IMG/VR virus record: IMGVR_UViG_3300037313_000691
Coordinates: 1-39,497 of that record
Length of the DNA stretch: 39,497 nt
Source of the DNA: a virus
Lineage: Duplodnaviria; Caudoviricetes
Reading direction: 5' to 3' (one strand)
Made by a program: the position numbers and the translations under genes. Numbering within the stretch: the first letter of the stretch is position 1; every line of letters starts with the position of its first letter. The notes beneath the pieces are model-generated. The model saw only the letters and a list, made by a program, of their open reading frames with translations, ran no database searches and had not been told where the DNA came from. This document shows, piece by piece, positions 2,909-23,015 of this stretch.

Positions 2909-3241
2909 TCAGCCTTTGCGGATGGCAGCGGCGAGTTCTTCGGCGGCGTCGATTTGCCCAAGCATCTGATCCTCGAAAGCGATGTCGCTCGTCCACTTGT
3001 CGCGTGGGCCGATCTCGCGCGCCAGCTCATCGGCAATCTTCGCGCATCGCTCCCTCTCAGCCCCGCGCCCAGCCTCATAGCACCTCATGCCGTATTCGCG
3101 CATCTGCTCGGCGGTGTAGGCCCGGTAGGGTATTTGCGATGCTCCAGCCAGCGGATTCGGATTCAACGCCATTTCGATCACGTTCGCGTTGATGGGTTCC
3201 GGCAATTCCGGCAGCTCTCGGGGTGATGTGCGGAAGGTCAT
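2909..3241 (-). CDS. Phage hypothetical protein
   Basis: Common phage motifs LPELPEP, YTAEQMREYG, ERERCAKIAD, AAAIR; ATGA coupling. Confidence 0.75.
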   Translation of the reverse strand: MTFRTSPRELPELPEPINANVIEMALNPNPLAGASQIPYRAYTAEQMREYGMRCYEAGRGAERERCAKIADELAREIGPRDKWTSDIAFEDQMLGQIDAAEELAAAIRKG

Positions 3242-3459
3242 TGGGAGTCCTTTCGTTGACGCTCGATCGCCAGCCTGAGGTCGGACTCCGCATTCCACAA
3301 GTCCGCTTGCGCTTGGCTGTAATCCATCGACAACCGCATCCGGTCGGCCTCATCCCTGCCGTTGACGTTCATCATCCCCAGCGATTCAACGCGCACCCGC
3401 CTTTGTGCGACGATTTTCGATAGCGCGTCGATTTCCAGATTGCGGACCGTTTCGCTCAT
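3238..3459 (-). CDS. Hypothetical protein
   Basis: SD GAAGGAG upstream; coupled to the next gene. Confidence 0.7.
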   Translation of the reverse strand: MSETVRNLEIDALSKIVAQRRVRVESLGMMNVNGRDEADRMRLSMDYSQAQADLWNAESDLRLAIERQRKDSQ

Positions 3460-3498
3460 GCTCTCTTCTCCTTCAATGACCTACCTAGAGGCAGGCAA

Positions 3499-3936
3499 TC
3501 ACTTTCCTTGTTTCACGATCCGGCGCGGCCCCATTTTCGCCGCAGCTTCCAATCGGCGGGTGTCCTCTCGCGTCCACGCACGCGGGGCGGGCTTGAGGCC
3601 CGGATGCAGGAAGAAGTCGGGATACACCACAGTCTGCCCGCTGCTGGTGGTGTAGTTCGGTTTCCGGTCTTCAACTCGATGGGCGATGGCCTGCGGGATT
3701 GACTGCACGATTTCCAACTTCGGCTTGGGAATCTGGATGATCAGCCCGCGCTGCTGTGAGGACTCCTCGCGCACCATGCGCTCCAGGTCCGCGATCAACC
3801 GTGTCGCCCCGTCCATCGCGTTGTAGGCGCGTGTCATCCAGTCCACGGCGGCGGCTTGAGTGTCGCACTTGCGCAGGCCGCGCATCAGCGTGTCCATTTC
3901 GGACAGGATGGCGCGCTTTCGTTCCTCGTGGCTCAT
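3499..3936 (-). CDS. Hypothetical protein
   Basis: ATGA overlap with the upstream gene; start MSHEERK. Confidence 0.6.
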   Translation of the reverse strand: MSHEERKRAILSEMDTLMRGLRKCDTQAAAVDWMTRAYNAMDGATRLIADLERMVREESSQQRGLIIQIPKPKLEIVQSIPQAIAHRVEDRKPNYTTSSGQTVVYPDFFLHPGLKPAPRAWTREDTRRLEAAAKMGPRRIVKQGK

Positions 3937-4400
3937 GGCGCGAGGCGCACTACTTTTTCGTCCTGCGGGGCTGGGAGCAGGTTGTCGGCCTGCACCTTGT
4001 CGATCACGCGGCGGCCATCGGCCAGGAGCATATGCGGCATGAACGCGGCTTCGAAACTGAGCACGCCGCACTCCACGGCGGTGATCTGGCCTTTCACCCA
4101 ATCTCGCAGGACGGAGCACACGGCAACCTTGCCGATTTCGAGTGCCTTGCGGTCGTAGGCTGCGCGATCATTGCCGCGCACTTTGGCCCAAGGATGAGCC
4201 CTTTGCCATGCTGCTGCATAGCCTTTCCAGTTCGCCTCTAGGCTCACGGTTCGGTCGCGCCACTTGAACTGCACCATCGTGCAGCCCTTCTCGTTGTCCA
4301 CCATCGTGCCGAAACTCTGGCAGCCGAACTTGGCGAGCGTTCGCTGTAGCTCGGTTAGCGCCTTATCTCCGCTGGTAGCGGTTTCATACGGCAGGCCCAT
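3933..4400 (-). CDS. Phage hypothetical protein
   Basis: SD AAAGGA before MGLPYETATSGDKA...; motif LRDWVKGQITAVECGVLSFEAAFMPH recalled from phage hypotheticals. Confidence 0.8.
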   Translation of the reverse strand: MGLPYETATSGDKALTELQRTLAKFGCQSFGTMVDNEKGCTMVQFKWRDRTVSLEANWKGYAAAWQRAHPWAKVRGNDRAAYDRKALEIGKVAVCSVLRDWVKGQITAVECGVLSFEAAFMPHMLLADGRRVIDKVQADNLLPAPQDEKVVRLAP

Positions 4401-4543: not shown

Positions 4544-4590
4544 GGATTGCAAATCCGTTCAGCTCGGTTCGACTCCGGGACGCGCCTCCA
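4544..4590 (+). other. attP: attP core: 3' half of tRNA-Cys(GCA)
   Basis: GGATTGCAAATCC-GTTCAG-CTCGGTTCGACTCCGGG-ACGCGCCTCCA is the anticodon arm to CCA of a proteobacterial tRNA-Cys (U73). The 5' half is absent, and it lies 60 bp from the integrase stop. Confidence 0.9.
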
Positions 4591-4649
4591 ATCACTACGC
4601 GGATTTGCTGCTATCGAAGCAGTAGCAACACGCAAACCGTGTGGGGAAA

Positions 4650-5618
4650 TCATGCCCTACGTCCGATTTTAAGGATGGCGTCGTTCAATCGATCGGTCGC
4701 CAAATGCGCGTAGCGTTTCGTGCTCGCCGCGCTCCTATGCCCCAGCACCGCGCCCACCGTGTAGAGGTCCACGCCCGAGTTAATCAACTCGCTGGCCGTG
4801 CTGTGCCTCAGGTCGTGGAAGTGCAGCCACGACATTCCCACAGCCTTGCGGGCCTTCACGAAATGGTAGTTCGTGACGAACCGCGAGCGCATCTCGAACT
4901 GCGCGCAACACCTGATCCTCGGATGGATCGGGATGATTCGCGGGTCGCCGTTCTTCGTGTCTCGAAGGACAAATTGCCCGTCGATCACCTCGGCGCGGTA
5001 AATCTCCCCAAGCCTCATCCCCGAATAGAACGCGATGCGGATCGCCGCCCGTGTAGCCTTGTCCTGGCACGCCTTGGCAAGCCGCAGCATCTCTGCGCGC
5101 CCGATGTAATGTTGCCGCTGGTTCTTCACTTGTGGGACTGCGATGCGCGCTCCGGGGTCGGCTTCGCCCATCGCGTGGTGCTTCCACGCATACCGACACG
5201 CGGCGCGAAGGTACGAGATGCGATTCTTGATCGTGGCGGGTGACAGGGGTTTGTCGCCGTGCTCCCGTGCAGATCGCAGGCTGATGGCCTTGCACACATC
5301 GGCCAGTGCCGACATGGGCCGTCCTTGGTAGGCCCAGAACGTCACGGCCAGCTCCTTCGCCACGTTGCGGCCGTGCTTGAGGCCTGGGGCGCGTTCACGC
5401 AGGTACACCGCTACTGCGTCTTCGATTGAGTAATCGGAATCACCGATGCCTCGCGCTGTGGCGTAGATGCGGCCCGTGTGTTCGCGGTCGAAGGCGTCCG
5501 CTTGGGCACGATTCCAAGCGCGCGGAAGGAGCTTTGTAGTGCGGACTCGTTGGCCGCCGATACGCGCGTCGAACTCAAAGCGGAAGCGACCGCGCGCCTT
5601 GTCTCGGTAAATCGACAT
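4650..5618 (-). CDS. int: Tyrosine recombinase (phage integrase)
   Basis: SGMRLGE, TKNG, FHDLRH, LGH, TKRYAH catalytic motifs. Confidence 0.95.
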   Translation of the reverse strand: MSIYRDKARGRFRFEFDARIGGQRVRTTKLLPRAWNRAQADAFDREHTGRIYATARGIGDSDYSIEDAVAVYLRERAPGLKHGRNVAKELAVTFWAYQGRPMSALADVCKAISLRSAREHGDKPLSPATIKNRISYLRAACRYAWKHHAMGEADPGARIAVPQVKNQRQHYIGRAEMLRLAKACQDKATRAAIRIAFYSGMRLGEIYRAEVIDGQFVLRDTKNGDPRIIPIHPRIRCCAQFEMRSRFVTNYHFVKARKAVGMSWLHFHDLRHSTASELINSGVDLYTVGAVLGHRSAASTKRYAHLATDRLNDAILKIGRRA

Positions 5619-5773
5619 TTCGCCTTGAACTCCTCGATGTCGGCCTGATCGAACACCACGCGCCGGCCAATTCGCGTGCAGGGGATTGGACCATTGGGGG
5701 CGGCCAGATCATATGCCTGGCGGGCAGAGACACCCAAAACCGCTGCTGCTTGCCTGGCGTTCATCGCGCTCAT
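5411..5773 (-). CDS. xis: Excisionase (MerR/AlpA-like HTH)
   Basis: MNARQAAAVLGVSARQAYDL...IPCTRIGRRVVF; overlaps the integrase 5' end by 208 nt. Confidence 0.85.
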   Translation of the reverse strand: MSAMNARQAAAVLGVSARQAYDLAAPNGPIPCTRIGRRVVFDQADIEEFKAKCRFTETRRAVASALSSTRVSAANESALQSSFRALGIVPKRTPSTANTRAASTPQREASVIPITQSKTQ

Positions 5774-6057
5774 TCCTTCCTATCCCTGATTGAAGCGGCG
5801 CACGCGGCAGCCCCGCCTGTGTTGGCGGCTCCGTTGTCAATTTCTTGTTGACGCTCAACGTCATCGCAAATCTTCGCGCAAGCCTCGCGCTCTTCTGCCC
5901 GCACTTTGTCGGCAAAGGTGGAGAGGCCGTCCATCGAAAACGTCACCGTGCCGCGCGAGATTCCGCCGTCAGGAAGCGTGAACTCATGGATTTGGATAAC
6001 GGCCCCACTCTCCCTAGCGAGTTCTACGAGGGAGTTCTGCACTTCGTTACTCATCAT
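5770..6057 (-). CDS. Phage hypothetical protein
   Basis: ELARESGA...FADKVRAEEREACAKICD motif common in phage early genes. Confidence 0.8.
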   Translation of the reverse strand: MMSNEVQNSLVELARESGAVIQIHEFTLPDGGISRGTVTFSMDGLSTFADKVRAEEREACAKICDDVERQQEIDNGAANTGGAAACAASIRDRKE

Positions 6058-6346
6058 CAGTACCTTCCGGCGAGATCGTGTCGCCGTGAAGCACCGTCAC
6101 GCCAGGGGCGTCTTTCTCATCGATTTGCGTTTCGGCCTCGTGCTTGAGCGTGATGCGTGTTTCGACGCCGTGTCGTCCTTCGCCCCACACCATGCGCATC
6201 TGCTTCCAGCTCCAGAAGTCGGAGCCGGTGTGAATCGCCGACGATGAATCGCGGAACGTCACATCGAGCGAGCCGATCTTGTGTTCGCGTGCGAGCGCGA
6301 CGAGAGCGCGGGCAAATTCCACATGCGCGGGCTTGATGTCGCTCAT
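6047..6346 (-). CDS. Hypothetical protein (cassette-like gene)
   Basis: SD GGAGG; C-terminus reads through junction motif J6. Confidence 0.75.
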   Translation of the reverse strand: MSDIKPAHVEFARALVALAREHKIGSLDVTFRDSSSAIHTGSDFWSWKQMRMVWGEGRHGVETRITLKHEAETQIDEKDAPGVTVLHGDTISPEGTDDE

Positions 6347-6403
6347 CGCTTTTCGCCTCCGTTACCTTGCGGCTGTGCCGCGTCAACCGCTGCGCCCACG
6401 CCA

Positions 6404-6694
6404 TCAGTGCCCCTTGCGTTCATGGATGCCTCCGGGGTTCGATACGTCGTTGAAGTCGCCGCTCGCCACCATGTCGAGCGTCTGTTGCGCCCAAGCGAGC
6501 GCCTGCTCTTTGCCCACGTCAGCGATCATTGAACCGACGCACGCACCGATGAAGCCCGCGTAGAGCTGGCCCATGTGCTGCGCAGTCGGATTTGCCTTGC
6601 GCGTGGCTTCGCGCACGATCGGCATGCACAGCCGCATAAAAACGTCAGCGCCGATCTGCACAGGCGGGCCGACGAATCGCTCCTGCTTAGCCAT
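6404..6694 (-). CDS. Hypothetical protein (cassette-like gene)
   Basis: SD GAGG before MAKQERFVG. Confidence 0.7.
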   Translation of the reverse strand: MAKQERFVGPPVQIGADVFMRLCMPIVREATRKANPTAQHMGQLYAGFIGACVGSMIADVGKEQALAWAQQTLDMVASGDFNDVSNPGGIHERKGH

Positions 6695-6745
6695 GGGTGT
6701 TACCTCGTTCGGAAGCCGAGGGCGCGCCATCATTACCTTGCTGAG

Positions 6746-7030
6746 TCATCGTGTCTTGATCCCATGGTTGAGCCGGTCGCCAGCGAACGTCGTGCAGCAG
6801 GCCGGATATTGCAGGCCGGTCCACACGCTGTTCTCGTATGGCTCGTGGATAGCGTTGCACTCCGGGCACATCCAGGCACGCCCGAAGTGCAACGACTTCG
6901 CCGCGATTGGCTTGTAGGTGTTCCGGTAGCAGTAGCGGTCGTTGAACGCCCTGGCGATGGCTGATCGGTTCGCGGCGTCCTTACGCTCCGCGCGGCGCTT
7001 CTTCAGAAACTCGATGAGGTCACTGAGCAT
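6746..7030 (-). CDS. Small Cys-rich (CPEC...CC) protein, possible Zn finger
   Basis: SD AAGGAGG; WMCPECNAIH...YPACC. Confidence 0.75.
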   Translation of the reverse strand: MLSDLIEFLKKRRAERKDAANRSAIARAFNDRYCYRNTYKPIAAKSLHFGRAWMCPECNAIHEPYENSVWTGLQYPACCTTFAGDRLNHGIKTR

Positions 7031-7910
7031 CGCTGTTACCTCCTTCGCTGGCGGAGCCGTGCAACCGATTCACGCCAGCATTACCTGCTGAGCCGTGGTG
7101 TTGCGGCACGCGCAGCGGGTTCGCGTATCCGGGCGGCAGGAAGGGCTGCAAGTCCTTCTTGACGTAGTGCCGCACGCCGAGCTTCTGGCACAGGTCGATC
7201 ATCCGGCGCGTGTAGTCGCACCAGTCCGTCGTGCGCGTGATCGAGCCGAGGTAGTTTGCGCGGCCGATCTTGAAGAGGTCCACGTAGCTGTGCGTCTTGT
7301 GGACTATTTCGAGGCTTGCCTCCACGTCGAGCGTCGGCTCCAGCGACACCCAAGTGAAGATGCCGCGCGAATGGAAAGCGTAGAGCGCGTTGAGCCGGTC
7401 GACCGGTAGAGCCGCGCCGCGCTCCCACTTCTTCGAGAACTCGTCATCCAGCGTTGTCAGCGTGCTGGCGAACGCATCACGGTCGGGGCGGAAGAGGTCG
7501 ATGTCCCGCAGTGCGCGCGTGCCGCCCTTGGTCAACGTGCAGAACCCCAAGCCGTGAGCGCGCAGCACCTGGAGCGTTTCGCGCGTGAGCGTCGTATCGC
7601 CGGGGTGGTACGGGTCCGTGGTGAAGGACAGCATGACCTGCTCGCGCGACCCCATCGCCTGGTACTTCTTCGCGTCCTTTGTGAGCGCGGCGAGGAAGCC
7701 TTCCCGCGGCACGGCCCCGGCGTCGAACTCGGCGCGCTTCATCTTGAGCACGCCAGGCACGTAGCAGTAGGCGCAACCGTGGCCGCAGCCCCGGTACGGA
7801 TTGGCCGCGAGCGGCGCGTACTCTCCGGCCTGTCCTGCCGGCGCGTAGATGTGGCTACATCCCTTGATCGCCACGCCTCGCGGCATGAATTCGATGGTGC
7901 GAGTCGTCAC
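7020..7910 (-). CDS. Radical SAM protein, spore-photoproduct-lyase-like family
   Basis: NPYRGCGHGCAYCY (CxxxCxxC), TDPY, LTK, WVSLEP motifs. Confidence 0.9.
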   Translation of the reverse strand: MTTRTIEFMPRGVAIKGCSHIYAPAGQAGEYAPLAANPYRGCGHGCAYCYVPGVLKMKRAEFDAGAVPREGFLAALTKDAKKYQAMGSREQVMLSFTTDPYHPGDTTLTRETLQVLRAHGLGFCTLTKGGTRALRDIDLFRPDRDAFASTLTTLDDEFSKKWERGAALPVDRLNALYAFHSRGIFTWVSLEPTLDVEASLEIVHKTHSYVDLFKIGRANYLGSITRTTDWCDYTRRMIDLCQKLGVRHYVKKDLQPFLPPGYANPLRVPQHHGSAGNAGVNRLHGSASEGGNSDAQ

Positions 7911-7971
7911 GAGTTACTCCCTCCGTCAGACGTTTTCGTGGCGACCGGCATGCCAGCAATACCTTGCTGAG

Positions 7972-8457
7972 TCATAGGTCCTCCAGCTTCGTGTCGTATC
8001 CGAGCATCAACGGATGCAGTGGGTCGCGGCTCTTGGTGCGGCCGAAGCATTTCATGGGCTTGCCCGTCCTGCGCAACAGCACGAGCGTGTTGTCAAAGTG
8101 GTAGCGCAGTCCGGCGTGAACCTTGGAGCGGTTGCCCCAGCATGGAACAAGAATGTCTGCGTCGGCGGCGATCTGCTTCAAGTGCTCGGCGTTGTCCAAT
8201 CCGGTTGGGTGCATGACGCCGGCCAGCTCGCGCACATCGGTCGCGCGATACGCGAACACGTTGCCGACAATGAACCGGCGTCCACCCCAGCGGGACACGA
8301 AGCCGATCCACTTGCCGACAGTCTGATCGTCAACGGTCGCATCTGCGGTGCTCGGGTTGATGCCGAAGAACGCATAGATCGGGCCGCTGGCGTCCGGTAT
8401 CTCCCGCTCCAGGCGGTAGCGGAATTTTCCGCAGTCGGAGAGGGTCGCGCCGTTCAT
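7972..8457 (-). CDS. DUF1643 family protein
   Basis: SDCGKFRYRLER, GINPSTADATVDDQT, GNVFAYRATD, CWG, PLHPL motifs. Confidence 0.9.
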   Translation of the reverse strand: MNGATLSDCGKFRYRLEREIPDASGPIYAFFGINPSTADATVDDQTVGKWIGFVSRWGGRRFIVGNVFAYRATDVRELAGVMHPTGLDNAEHLKQIAADADILVPCWGNRSKVHAGLRYHFDNTLVLLRRTGKPMKCFGRTKSRDPLHPLMLGYDTKLEDL

Positions 8458-8526
8458 GGCTTCGCTCCGGTTACATCGGTCCGCGAGCCGTTTTGCGCTG
8501 CGTCCACGCCATCGGTGACTTTCATG

Positions 8527-8742
8527 TCATGTGGCATAGCTAACTCCCAAGGCCAAGAGCTGCGCCTGGCATTCGCGGGCAAATTGCTCTGGCCCGTTCT
8601 CGCGGTAGAACTCCAAACGACCCGAGAGGAAGCGGACTTGCCGCCTGCGCTCGCTGCGCGCCTCCAGCCACAACATCAGCGGCAAGACCACGATCGGCAT
8701 GAAGACGATCGCTGCCATAGAGATGTTGGCGGCGGACATCAT
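8527..8742 (-). CDS. Small membrane protein
   Basis: TM segment AAIVFMPIVVLPLMLWL; ATGA coupling. Confidence 0.6.
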   Translation of the reverse strand: MMSAANISMAAIVFMPIVVLPLMLWLEARSERRRQVRFLSGRLEFYRENGPEQFARECQAQLLALGVSYAT

Positions 8743-8837
8743 GCGGCCCCATTTCTCGCAGCCAGCCAGGAGCCGACCAGCAGACCGATGAACACACCGT
8801 TGCCGAAGCACATATAGCCGATGACGACGTAGCTCAT
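8739..8837 (-). CDS. 32-aa membrane peptide
   Basis: MSYVVIGYMCFGNGVFIGLLVGSWLAARNGAA*; ATGA overlaps on both sides. Confidence 0.55.
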   Translation of the reverse strand: MSYVVIGYMCFGNGVFIGLLVGSWLAARNGAA

Positions 8838-9091
8838 TGCTTCCTCGCTAGATCGAAAACTGAGGCAATGCGCTGAGACTTGCGGTAGAACCCCGCACGC
8901 GAGCGGTTGTGGCGCGCTGCGGCTTGACGCTGAGGGCGAAGCGGAACGCCCAAGTAACGCAGGGCCGTTACCACGGATGTCTCACTGGCCTTCAAGATCG
9001 CTGCGACTTGGCGGCGAGACTTCTCCTCATCTCGGTACAGGATGGCGGCTTGGTGCATTTGCAGAGGGGTTAGGGCTTTCGCTCTCGGCAT
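8834..9091 (-). CDS. HTH DNA-binding protein
   Basis: LYRDEEKSRRQVAAILKASETSVVTALRYLGVPLR. Confidence 0.7.
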   Translation of the reverse strand: MPRAKALTPLQMHQAAILYRDEEKSRRQVAAILKASETSVVTALRYLGVPLRPQRQAAARHNRSRAGFYRKSQRIASVFDLARKQ

Positions 9092-10059
9092 CACGCGGGG
9101 GCCTTTGCTGCTGTCTTGCGCGCTTCGCCTTCCTTTTTTAAGCCGCTGCGCACGTTCGATGGAAGGACCGACCACAAGGCAACCTTCTGATCGGAGTCCA
9201 GGTTTTCGGCCTCGATGCGGTCGAAGGCAATGACAACGCCTGCCTCTTCGCTGTTGAAAAGGTCCGTCACTTCCGCGCCGAGGTCGCGCAGGTAGGTTTG
9301 CTGATCCGCGTCCACCATCGCCATTGCGCCCATCGTCGCGGAACTGCGGAAAGAGATCGTTTCCGTGCCGATGTCGGCCAGCCCTTCACCGCCTTCGGTG
9401 TTGAGGAAGTGGACGGCAGTGTCCAGGCGGTCGGTCTTGGGCCAGAGTTTGTAGGCGCGCTTGATGACCGTCTTTTTGATCATCTCGCCCTCGTCCGTCT
9501 TCCACGGACCCTTTTGCCCACTCTTCCACGAGCTGGAGCGATTGCGAATGTCGTACACCTCGTCAATCGCCATACAGGTGGTGAGGTAGTCGCCATCGCG
9601 GGTCTTGACGACCACATAGACGCCGACGATGGGGCCGCGCTCCTTGGCGAACGGATTGCGGTTATGGGACGGAGGCTTGTCGAAGCCTTGCAGCTCGAAG
9701 CGGTCTTGTTCGTAGACGAGTTCGGACTGCCCCCACATGATGGAGCCGGACTGGATGGCGAGGTCCAGCAGGCCCATGTAGCTGATGTCCAGGCAGATGC
9801 GCCCATCGCGCGGCACGAGGTACGCCTGCCGCTTGGCGGGGTTCAGGCTGATCCCGATGGCCGCGACGTTCGTCACCGCGTTGATGACGGACTGGCGGTT
9901 GTCCATCGACACACGCATGGTGTACTCGTTGGCCGTGACAATCTGAACGGCGAACCCGGCTTCACGTTCGAAGTTCAGCGCCCCACCGGACATCTTCTCA
10001 AACCGCTCGCGCGTGGAGTAGATGTCGTCGCGGATGATTTGCAAGCTGTTGTTCGTCAT
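9091..10059 (-). CDS. recT: RecT-family single-strand annealing protein
   Basis: [48 protein letters not shown] motifs. Confidence 0.9.
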
Positions 10060-11055: not shown

Positions 11056-12303
11056 TCATGACTCAAACGCAGGCGCGTAGTCTTCCGGCCGCGCGAATGC
11101 CACTTGCGTCTTGTCCCCGCGCTTGCGCCAGGTCGATGCGCTAGCTGCGATCAGTTCACGCCCCGCACGACCGCCGTACAGCGAACCATCAACCGGGATC
11201 ACGTACCGCCTCGTCGTGCCGTCCGGCTCCGGTGTGGAGTTCAGAACATCCAGCATCGTGATGCCGTTGATGTCCCACAGCTTGGCGGTGCGCAGTCCCT
11301 TGAGCGCGTGATCTTCCGACGCCGAGTCGATCAACTTCGCGTCAGACTCGCGCAGGTAGCGTTCGTAGCCGTACCGCTCGACCATGATGCGGCGCACTTC
11401 TGCGTTCGCTTCGTCCTTGATCTGCGCGAGCGTGATCGTTTCAGGCCGCATCACGACCTGCTCCGTCACCGCAACGCCGTGGATGTAGTACAGCGCCCAA
11501 CCGTCCGGGTAGGCGACCGCAGGACCATCCTCGCGGTGCAGTTGGTAGCGCCCGTTCGGTAGGCGGGTTTGGTGAATCTGTGAATGCCGCTCGCTCACCC
11601 AGCAGATGTGCTCGTGCGGGATGGCCCATCCCGCAGATTGCGCGAGCTCCCACAGCCCAGCAAGCTTTTCGGTCTGCGCCGTGAGGCCGCATTCCCTGGA
11701 AAAAAATTCGTAAAAACCAAGCCAGTTCGCGTCGTGCGCCCCGTAGACGCTGTCCCAGACGCTGTCCCTGACGCTGGCCCTGACGCTGGCCCTGACGCTG
11801 GCCCTGACGCTGTCCCCGACGCTGTCCCCGACGCTGTCCCAGACGCTGGCCCCGACGCTGTCCCAGACGCTGTCCCAGACGCTGTCCCCGACGCTGTCCC
11901 TGACGCTGTCCCCGACGCTGTCCCAGACGCTGTCCCAGACGCTGTCCCCGACGCTGTCCCAGACGCTGTCCCAGACGCTGGCCCCGACGCTGTCCCAGAC
12001 GCTGTCCCCGACGCTGTCCCTGACGCTGTCCCCGACGCTGTCCCAGACGCTGTCCCCGACGCTGTCCCCGACGCTGGCCGGGAGCTTCTGGACGATACTG
12101 CGCGTCAGCCCTTGCGACAAAGGCGAACCGCACCACACAACACGGGGCGGCTTCTTGCCGGCGATTTCGTACATGCGGCGAATCGCGGCTTCGGCGCGCG
12201 GGCGGTCTGCGGGCTTCGTGGAAAGACCGATGTTCGTCCAGCGGCGCACGTATTCAGGAAACTTCGCTTCCTGCGCGGCAGTGAGCTTTTCGATGCGGGT
12301 CAT
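11056..12303 (-). CDS. DUF6745-like protein with SV(W/G/R)(D/A) tetrapeptide repeats
   Basis: STKPADRPRAE, WCGSP, LHREDGPAVAYPDGW..YYIHGV, NAEVRR..ERYG, NSTPEPDG motifs. Confidence 0.85.
   Translation of the reverse strand: MTRIEKLTAAQEAKFPEYVRRWTNIGLSTKPADRPRAEAAIRRMYEIAGKKPPRVVWCGSPLSQGLTRSIVQKLPASVGDSVGDSVWDSVGDSVRDSVGDSVWDSVGASVWDSVWDSVGDSVWDSVWDSVGDSVRDSVGDSVWDSVWDSVGASVWDSVGDSVGDSVRASVRASVRASVRDSVWDSVYGAHDANWLGFYEFFSRECGLTAQTEKLAGLWELAQSAGWAIPHEHICWVSERHSQIHQTRLPNGRYQLHREDGPAVAYPDGWALYYIHGVAVTEQVVMRPETITLAQIKDEANAEVRRIMVERYGYERYLRESDAKLIDSASEDHALKGLRTAKLWDINGITMLDVLNSTPEPDGTTRRYVIPVDGSLYGGRAGRELIAASASTWRKRGDKTQVAFARPEDYAPAFES
11752..12075 (-). repeat. 27 x 12-bp coding tandem repeat AGCGTC(T/G/A)GGG(A/C)C
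   Basis: Directly visible; only two positions vary between units. Confidence 0.97.
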
Positions 12304-13488: not shown

Positions 13489-13757
13489 TCGCTGCCTTTC
13501 TGTCCGGTGGAGGGGGCGGGGAAGGGCTTCCAGTGCGTCGGCTCCCAGAGGTCAACGTTCTCCACCGTGCCGCGACACCAGCCGTAAAGCGGGACGTGCG
13601 ATGCCTTGCCCCACCACGTCACGCGCACGGACATGGCAGTCCGCCAACCCGGCAAGATGCTTCCCGGCATCTGTCGAACGCGCAGCCGAAGCCGCCCTTT
13701 TCCGTGGAAGCGCGCCCCATCCTTCGGCGCGGTTTCGATGTTTTGCCATTCGCTCAC
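13485..13757 (-). CDS. DUF551-like protein
   Basis: SEWQNIETAPKDG...EPTHWKPFPAP signature. Confidence 0.85.
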   Translation of the reverse strand: MSEWQNIETAPKDGARFHGKGRLRLRVRQMPGSILPGWRTAMSVRVTWWGKASHVPLYGWCRGTVENVDLWEPTHWKPFPAPSTGQKGSE

Positions 13758-14032
13758 TTCTCTTCGCTCCCTTCTTGCTTGTTCCCGGTGATGTGGGAGG
13801 AGGCGGAAGCCCACTGCACGAATGCGCCACGCAAGTACACGGCGGTGTATGCAGCAACAAGAGCGGCGATACCCCACGCGCGCGACTGCCACGCGAACGC
13901 AATCCAGAACGCCTGCCCGATGAGGCCGACGATTGGGGCCCACTTCCGCTGCCCGATGCTTTGGCCCATCGCCATCCACAGAGCCGAGAGCCCGAAGGCG
14001 GCGATGCCAAGTTGAATCAGCGCGTCAGCCAT
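13754..14032 (-). CDS. Small multi-TM membrane protein
   Basis: RKWAPIVGLIGQAFWIAFAW..WGIAALVAAYT; three hydrophobic segments. Confidence 0.75.
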   Translation of the reverse strand: MADALIQLGIAAFGLSALWMAMGQSIGQRKWAPIVGLIGQAFWIAFAWQSRAWGIAALVAAYTAVYLRGAFVQWASASSHITGNKQEGSEEK

Positions 14033-14306
14033 TGCCGTTCCCCTTCGCGCGAATCGCCCGCAGCTCATTGAGTTCCGCGTGCCAAGCCTTCAAGTCCCAG
14101 CGGCGAGCGTTGGGGTCGCGTCCAACACAGAACATCCGCTTTTCGCCCGTTTCCACTTCGCTCCAGGCATTGCCGCTGAAGCTGTCCCCTCTCCATACAC
14201 GCCTGTCGTGTTCGGGAGTGCGAAGGAATGCAGGTTCGTTGGTCGCAGCCAGCCCGCACTTGATCGGATCGGCCTCGGCGCGAACAACATCTACGATGGC
14301 GTTCAT
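14025..14306 (-). CDS. Hypothetical protein
   Basis: Coupled overlaps with both neighbours. Confidence 0.65.
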   Translation of the reverse strand: MNAIVDVVRAEADPIKCGLAATNEPAFLRTPEHDRRVWRGDSFSGNAWSEVETGEKRMFCVGRDPNARRWDLKAWHAELNELRAIRAKGNGNG

Positions 14307-22939: not shown

Positions 22940-23015
22940 GCGGCTAAGCTCGCGGGCCGAGTCCGGGGCCTTCCAAGCCTTCGAGAGCAGAGTTCGATTC
23001 TCTCTAGCCGCTCCA
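22940..23015 (+). tRNA. tRNA-Gly(TCC), atypical D arm
   Basis: Acceptor GCGGCTA/TAGCCGC, U73, loop CTTCCAA, TTCGATT, CCA. Confidence 0.8.

Follow-up and report, generated by a model that had tools for sequence, protein, structure and literature searches.

We analysed a stretch of 39,497 nucleotides, referred to here as the window, which is the whole of IMG/VR virus record IMGVR_UViG_3300037313_000691. The gene layout of this 39.5-kb record is that of a lambdoid temperate phage, with a repressor at ~16.2–16.7 kb and a leftward early operon that runs from recT through a region of small genes separated by a repeated junction, the array considered here, to xis and int. A sequence-only reading had placed six minus-strand junctions in this region (J1 to J6 in transcription order), each with a TGGCGTG-like core and together bounding five genes. 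All six are present at those positions and a core was found at every one, although in two of the six it is one base off (TGGCATG in J2 and TGGCGCG in J4), while the bounded genes are a DUF1643 gene, a radical SAM gene and three of no known family.

All features of the array lie on the minus strand. Site J1 (8496–8520) is formed of a 9-bp arm, the core TGGCGTG (8505–8511) and a second 9-bp arm, and sits in a minigene of 27 amino acids (8454–8537) that is composed of a head, the core and a tail and overlaps both adjoining genes. The DUF1643 gene (7972–8457; Pfam PF07799) is followed by site J2 (7940–7964; core 7949–7955) in a 22 amino acid minigene (7907–7975), and then by the radical SAM gene (7020–7910; Pfam PF04055), which runs on through site J3 (7062–7086; core 7071–7077). 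Downstream of this are a Cys-rich gene with no Pfam or PHROG match (6746–7030), site J4 (6714–6738; core 6723–6729) within a minigene at 6687–6749, and a gene of no known family (6404–6694) whose stop codon overlaps the left arm of site J5 (6388–6412; core 6397–6403). J5 lies within a minigene at 6343–6423, with its core and tail at 6354–6403, and the last gene, also of no known family (6047–6346), itself ends in a core and tail (6055–6104) that contain site J6 (6089–6113; core 6098–6104).

The junctions are thus open reading frames, a feature overlooked in the sequence-only reading. J1, J2, J4 and J5 are minigenes of 20–27 codons that overlap the preceding stop and the following start, whereas J3 and J6 lie within the C-terminal tails of the upstream genes. 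The core is read in the same frame in all six, xxT GGC RYG, and mostly encodes Gly-Val (GV), and at J3 a one-base gap relative to J2 and J4 lets the radical SAM gene continue in the frame of the core. Within the 3.3-kb region the coding strand carries five exact copies of TGGCGTG, where 0.38 are expected (P=5e-5); one of the five is incidental and lies inside the radical SAM gene. Over the whole window the pattern YRYYNNTGGCRYG matches four times, with 2.1 matches expected and four or more seen in 16 of 100 shuffles; it is therefore not enriched by count, yet all four matches are at junctions, so the signal is one of clustering and position. Two further elements that had been ascribed to the junction did not hold up. 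As single-stranded DNA, the supposed hairpin-forming middle folds better than shuffled sequence in J6 only (2/200), with z between −1.2 and +1.1 for the other five, and GTAAC, proposed as the downstream part of the motif, follows none of 39 exact cores in five other phages and is replaced by GGTACT in J6. Given its absence after the cores of other phages, GTAAC belongs to the tail family of this phage. The ends RYYYAAC/GTTRRRY of integron attC sites have no match on either strand of 5900–8600, as had been noted before, and Rfam gave no match at E≤1 in 5500–9200.

Among 80 viral loci with a related RecT we identified three further arrays, in the two closest relatives, G006 and G007 (both at 85%), and in G008, while RecT relatives at 78–80% had none; G009 and G410 were added through tail patterns, which matched 54 and 37 loci and yielded no other new array. 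In these mosaic phages the array occupies the early-left operon directly after the recombination genes, with cores both at the ends of genes and between domains of proteins, and in G007 there are 15 exact core copies between recT and int. The arrays of the window and these five phages add up to 17,945 nt and contain 44 exact cores, compared with 48 in 414,495 strand-nt in the remainder of the same records, a 21-fold enrichment, and the array cores are strand-polarised (44 sense, 3 antisense). In G006, G007 and G008, which were found by RecT homology alone, 25 cores occur in 10,014 nt where ~1.2 are expected. Motif-blind tiling of open reading frames placed 38 of the 44 cores in the Gly-Val frame, with four off-frame and two untiled; for three of the four the tiling had picked the wrong frame, and homologs back the GV frame for two. 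The tiling resolved four kinds of building block, namely heads, domain modules that stay in frame, modules of a whole gene, and tails. Three phages have empty minigenes made of a head plus a tail, and tails form families that are up to 90% identical over ~30 nt between phages. In the G009 array a degenerate core has expanded into a 9-nt tandem repeat inside a tail. A further locus, G411, was rejected as an array and looked like a Mu-type phage.

Other searches returned no array. The exact J2–J4 head pattern had no match in IMG/VR, a search with protein P0023 gave four loci of which none was new, and a two-core pattern (25 of 64 parts scanned) gave 121 loci with no array recognised. Against INPHARED, the int-to-recT region matched only in pieces of recT, int and DUF1643 among the 30 of 91 records listed, and the G007 array had no match; against plasmids only DUF1643 of the window array matched. 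Likewise, no array was seen in 80 metagenome and 46 genome RecT loci, and among clade-specific 7-mers in 78 RecT/int loci nothing was clear besides TGGCGTG.

The working unit consists of the 7-bp core TGGCGTG flanked by inverted arms that are degenerate (YRYY-NN-core-NN-RRYR), the fuller consensus being approximately RGNYRYYNN-TGGCGTG-NNRRYRNCY over 25 bp. In the long open reading frames of these phages, 12 of 288 Gly-Val pairs use the codons T-GGC-GTG, while in the arrays 44 of ~100 such 7-mers do. Using 42 sites (two incidental copies dropped) and two codon-usage backgrounds, we found synonymous positions to be fixed or biased at −6 and −3 (pyrimidine), at 0, +3 and +6 (the core), at +9 and +12 (purine) and at +15 (T), with z of 4.0–15, which indicates that the constraint acts on the DNA and not on a protein linker. 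The profile of the left arm correlates with that of the reverse-complemented right arm (r=0.66 against 347 in-frame control cores), a value reached in none of 2000 null draws and reduced to ≤0.27 when the two are slid. Furthermore, when one phage is held out, its arms can be predicted from the opposite arm in the remaining phages (p ~1e-13; 1550 control cores), although pairing within individual sites is absent (3.26 pairs versus 3.27 after reassortment). Inverted arms with an invariant asymmetric 7-bp centre correspond to the core-site anatomy of tyrosine recombinases. Most tyrosine recombinases need identity of the overlap (PMC2817482), and the sfx sites of shufflons consist of a 12-bp arm, a 7-bp core and a 12-bp arm (PMC11852207). 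Binding to the arms, by contrast with the overlap, may be loose (PMC11852207, PMC2817482).

That relatives gain, lose and swap modules with breakpoints in the core, as had been proposed, is supported by contigs and proteins. Contigs in runs X1 (possibly the source sample) and X2 (another study) join 8543 to 7955 with 30 letters between. Of these 30 letters 24 agree with the J1 head, so this relative has a J1-like head placed directly on the core and tail of J2, and the core-to-core DUF1643 module of 556 nt (7956–8511) is absent from it. The short side of this joint is 34 nt, the variable base of the core may be either G or A in the relative, and around the joint J1 and J2 have the core alone in common. 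Contigs in X2 and X4 match the window only over the core and tail of J5 (6354–6403) and differ from it on either side; there the J5 tail lies between other genes, and the break falls on the first base of the core, 6403. Likewise, an X1 contig matches 6055–6104, the J6 core and tail, with its break on the first base of the core, 6104. An X2 contig starts on the first base of the core of J3 (7077), a break that is weaker because it is a contig end, and an X1 contig with the J2 head and core departs from the window 4 nt after the core into another tail. Two X1 joints, 7092–8503 and 6749–7070 (side of 23 nt), were excluded from the breakpoint set. An X1 contig with a depth of ~38 represents a second abundant phage, which seems to share the DUF1643 gene and a J2-type head, while its tail differs and its J3-like unit follows a gene other than that in the window.

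At the protein level, P0003, P0023, P0024 and P0025 are identical through STS-GV and then continue into four tails, all different, that represent three types. From GV onward P0001 is the same as a G007 protein, but its short head differs; P0002 has the first domain in common and diverges once past GV. The four closest of 12 homologs of the gene at 6047–6346 diverge at (G/S)V into different tails, while 110 distant family members show no such core ending in the tails printed, and the 11 closest of 15 homologs of the gene at 6404–6694 keep the same C-terminus up to the core. Exchange at the core between relatives is therefore well supported. The general form of a tyrosine-recombinase site, two inverted arms around an asymmetric spacer of 6–8 bp, is present with weak arms, and crossover falls at the spacer, with breaks at 7955, 6403 and 6104 and at GV in proteins.

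On balance, and with confidence a little above even, we read the junctions as direct-repeat 25-bp sites at which genes, domains and tails are exchanged in frame, likely through a tyrosine-type and probably host-supplied recombinase; that a recombinase acts at the site is a prediction from this anatomy. Heads consist of ATG, ~4–9 codons and the core, and tails of the core and ~5–20 codons with the next ribosome-binding site, plus a stop; domain modules run in frame from core to core, and whole-gene modules are the remaining kind of piece. A head directly on a tail, as in J1, J2, J4 and J5, is an empty site. Each arm would be occupied by a recombinase monomer, with cleavage at either edge of the 7-bp core. 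The core would have to match between partners, which would account for its invariance next to arms that are loose. Modules would be excised between direct-repeat sites and inserted or swapped through sites carried by co-infecting phages or prophages, and the products would always be in frame and translationally coupled. New cargo may enter by ordinary illegitimate joins at gene ends, as for the radical SAM gene and the gene at 6047–6346, and would afterwards travel with sites. At least 24 of 63 radical SAM relatives stop directly after QHH, where the window gene enters J3, and a core lies downstream of the gene in 1 of the 63; as these relatives stop without a site, the cargo appears to have been captured from contexts without sites. 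The earlier proposal of an undescribed gene-shuffling system thus survives in its core breakpoints and swaps, but not in its bipartite, hairpin-based anatomy, and has to be widened to shuffling within proteins.

Several observations weigh against this reading. The cores of J2 and J4 are degenerate and the arms are weak, with a full YRYY in 34 of 42 left arms and a full RRYR in 16 of 42 right arms. Tails also swap partners near the next start codon, where the loose ends 6354 and 7030 lie, and the N-terminal extensions of P0144 and P0152 reflect exchange at the start-codon end of a tail, which is not explained by the core. In contigs, the sole type of data, neither an excised circle nor a within-population deletion was seen. 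The array set comprises the window, G006, G007, G008, G009 and G410, of which two came from motif search, and as the six phages have partly related tails, counts taken across them are not fully independent. A DNA search and profile A2 recovered no array from 401 Hydrogenophaga-family genomes, and a triple-core pattern matched 87 of the 401 at a background-like level, with no array in the 30 loci inspected. One bacterial match to this pattern (G310:C9:10147–10796) is a repeat of ~71-nt period with a GC-rich, stem-like part.

The enzyme is likewise difficult to place within the phages. BLAST comparison of five of the phages found no gene common to all, the four integrases fall into three unrelated groups (36% identity between the window and G007; G008 and G410 unalignable), and the stretches after int hold no core copy and have differing att regions. 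With no shared gene and with differing integrases, a host or helper-element recombinase is favoured. Among 32 proteins scanned the sole tyrosine recombinase was the phage integrase with its xis and att, no profile specific for IntI having been run. Of the drivers named in the sequence-only reading, the nearby integrase is accordingly disfavoured because the integrases of the array phages are unrelated, RecT because it is not found in all of them, and a host enzyme is the candidate that we infer.

The main rival is that annealases recombine short similar linkers, that selection keeps the in-frame joins and that the commonest word spreads, with no dedicated enzyme. A RecT-family annealase (9091–10059, minus strand; PF03837, phrog_148) does lie upstream of the array, and RecT is just upstream in four of the six phages, a set found through RecT; the relatedness of tail families between phages and the exchange at the start-codon end of tails would also be covered, and conserved boundary sequences have already been proposed (PMC3029335). 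However, minimal pairing by Red-beta takes ~23–27 bp of identity (PMC3945230), yet proteins that are identical upstream change their tail at or within a few residues of GV, and J1 and J2 have only the core in common around the 8543–7955 joint. Dyad symmetry is not predicted by annealing, and G410 has no RecT-family match at the annealase position (phrog_10048), so that we hold this explanation to be unlikely, if worth keeping in view. Quite improbable in our judgement is a sequence-specific cutter, either a Chi-like signal for AddAB/RecBCD or a nicking or staggered nuclease whose core ends anneal or ligate. Chi has no inverted arms. The polarity of the array cores and the RecT without an adjoining exonuclease gene in the window, G006 and G007 would suit a cutter (in G008, G009 and G410 an exonuclease gene lies beside the array), and in its extended form, GCTGGCGTG, the core is similar to Chi words, for example GCTGGCGC (PMC12315714). 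A survey of Chi covered only one-base variants of the E. coli octamer (PMC8022716). In 400-kb samples from two genomes of the likely host family, however, TGGCGTG is under-represented (z −2.2 and −3.0) and only weakly polarised (98/77 and 76/59, with strand assigned by local skew), though the actual host may differ, and published Chi-rich phages are mostly without recombination genes. In the samples of genomes G178 and G255 CTGGCGTG is among the most under-represented 8-mers (z −3.7 and −4.3), a deficit that could reflect site avoidance or a codon effect.

We think it very doubtful that the phage's own integrase (4650–5618, minus strand), a candidate enzyme that we do not favour, acts together with Xis on the junctions as secondary sites of the core type with relaxed requirements. 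In the four phages with int on the contig, xis-int follows immediately after the array, and all four integrases match phrog_1 or occupy that position, but integrases this divergent share the same site, their att regions differ and hold no core, and of 80 loci that encode a relative of the window integrase, 79 have no array. Least credible of all is an RNA or translation signal, or a protein linker, at which recombination would be incidental. All junctions are open frames coupled to their neighbours, and the one-base gap at J3 preserves the reading frame, as such a function would have it; yet there was neither an Rfam match, nor a folding signal in five of six junctions, nor per-site covariation, and a protein linker would not fix synonymous bases. 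The shared RNA processing or translation signal that had been offered earlier as an alternative would leave the exact breakpoints unexplained.

Set against known systems, the array resembles a cross between a shufflon, with which it shares the core and the protein variants, and pdif modules, with which it would share a borrowed recombinase and gain or loss of modules, but it misses the defining tests of integrons, shufflons and pdif modules alike. Shufflons (Rci, sfx; IncI plasmids) also have a 7-bp core between arms, several sites and segment-swapped protein variants (PMC11852207). Unlike the sfx sites, which invert, the array sites are direct repeats whose modules are gained or lost between phages, both of their arms are degenerate, and, whereas rci adjoins its shufflon, no rci-like or shared recombinase gene lies beside the arrays. 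In pdif modules (XerC/XerD; Acinetobacter plasmids), repeated sites shuffle accessory modules with a recombinase that is not self-encoded. The array site differs in its invariant 7-bp core and loose arms, and in lying inside reading frames and in phages. A dif site has 11-bp arms and a 6-bp spacer. Integrons and phage attC clusters share the single-gene cassette array with a site at each junction (PMC9892861), but the array has neither RYYYAAC/GTTRRRY ends nor a general single-stranded hairpin (one of six junctions folds better than shuffles), and its sites are located within open reading frames and divide proteins into domains as well.

The idea of boundary, or linker, sequences in mosaic phages reportedly goes back to the original HK620 work. 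These are short conserved words at gene boundaries of the early region and are thought to act by homologous recombination (PMC3029335), while crossovers in the array cluster within a 7-bp stretch that is flanked by dyad arms and read in one frame. Among the examined loci there were also 63 matches to [EQA]PVA[WY], a protein-level linker of other phages in the same early-left region. We take the proteins concerned to be modular products of lambdoid early-left operons in the style of Eaa/Ead/DUF551; they share the genome position and a module pool with the array (a DUF551-like domain in P0022 and P0002). That EPVAW is the same core in another frame was rejected, as its codons vary (16 of 41 use GTGGCGTGG), and this linker is therefore kept at the protein level and in another frame. 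In Rhs (DPxG) and CdiA (VENN) proteins a fixed peptide word likewise marks the point of in-frame C-terminal exchange; there the upstream homology is long and toxin tips are exchanged, whereas the array swaps unrelated modules on both sides of the core.

Beyond the array, the operon continues into an excisionase-like gene (5411–5773, minus strand; phrog_66), and past int lies a tRNA-like segment (4544–4591, plus strand) without TGGCGTG, which is likely attP and reads as the 3' half of a tRNA-Cys; it matches eight of ten genomes tried, at 83–88% at best. The nearest RecT proteins in named genomes come from Hydrogenophaga metagenome-assembled genomes and one of an unclassified member of the Pseudomonadota (74–79%). 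Small leftward genes (2909–4400, minus strand), one of them phrog_17260, lie past int and the likely attP and face a tRNA cluster, and no array site was recognised among them. Five tRNA genes (2474–2872 and 22940–23015, plus strand) correspond to Thr(TGT), Ala(CGC), Ser(CGA), Ser(GCT) and Gly(TCC); none of the five ends in CACGCCA, and the idea that the core is the complement of a tRNA 3' end was dropped. A DUF6745 gene (11056–12303, minus strand) contains a long 12-nt tandem repeat (~11674–12163) encoding SV(W/G/R)(D/A) units. In G008, the region after int (~13550–14050 of its locus) holds a tRNA-like segment and then an open reading frame that we presume to resemble a TROVE/Ro protein; the two may form a Y-RNA/Ro pair of the phage.

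The literature searched, which lacked most subscription papers, contained no description of the site, and an in-frame module-shuffling site of mosaic phages is real and apparently undescribed. We regard it as an even call that temperate phages of one host group, unrelated in other respects, share an undescribed site-specific recombination standard, in which a recombinase that is likely host-encoded builds and reshuffles genes and multi-domain proteins from a shared stock of in-frame parts. Mosaicism of phages exactly at gene and domain boundaries is a long-open question, usually ascribed to illegitimate recombination and selection, and in the present case several unrelated phages have their joins marked by one defined site of 25 bp. 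Should this site be the substrate of a recombinase, it would represent a cassette system separate from those of integrons, shufflons and pdif modules, based on a short, codon-compatible site that leaves only a Gly-Val scar. It would explain the origin of small multi-domain accessory proteins and give phages a new route to build and reshuffle accessory genes, a form of natural modular cloning at the level of domains.

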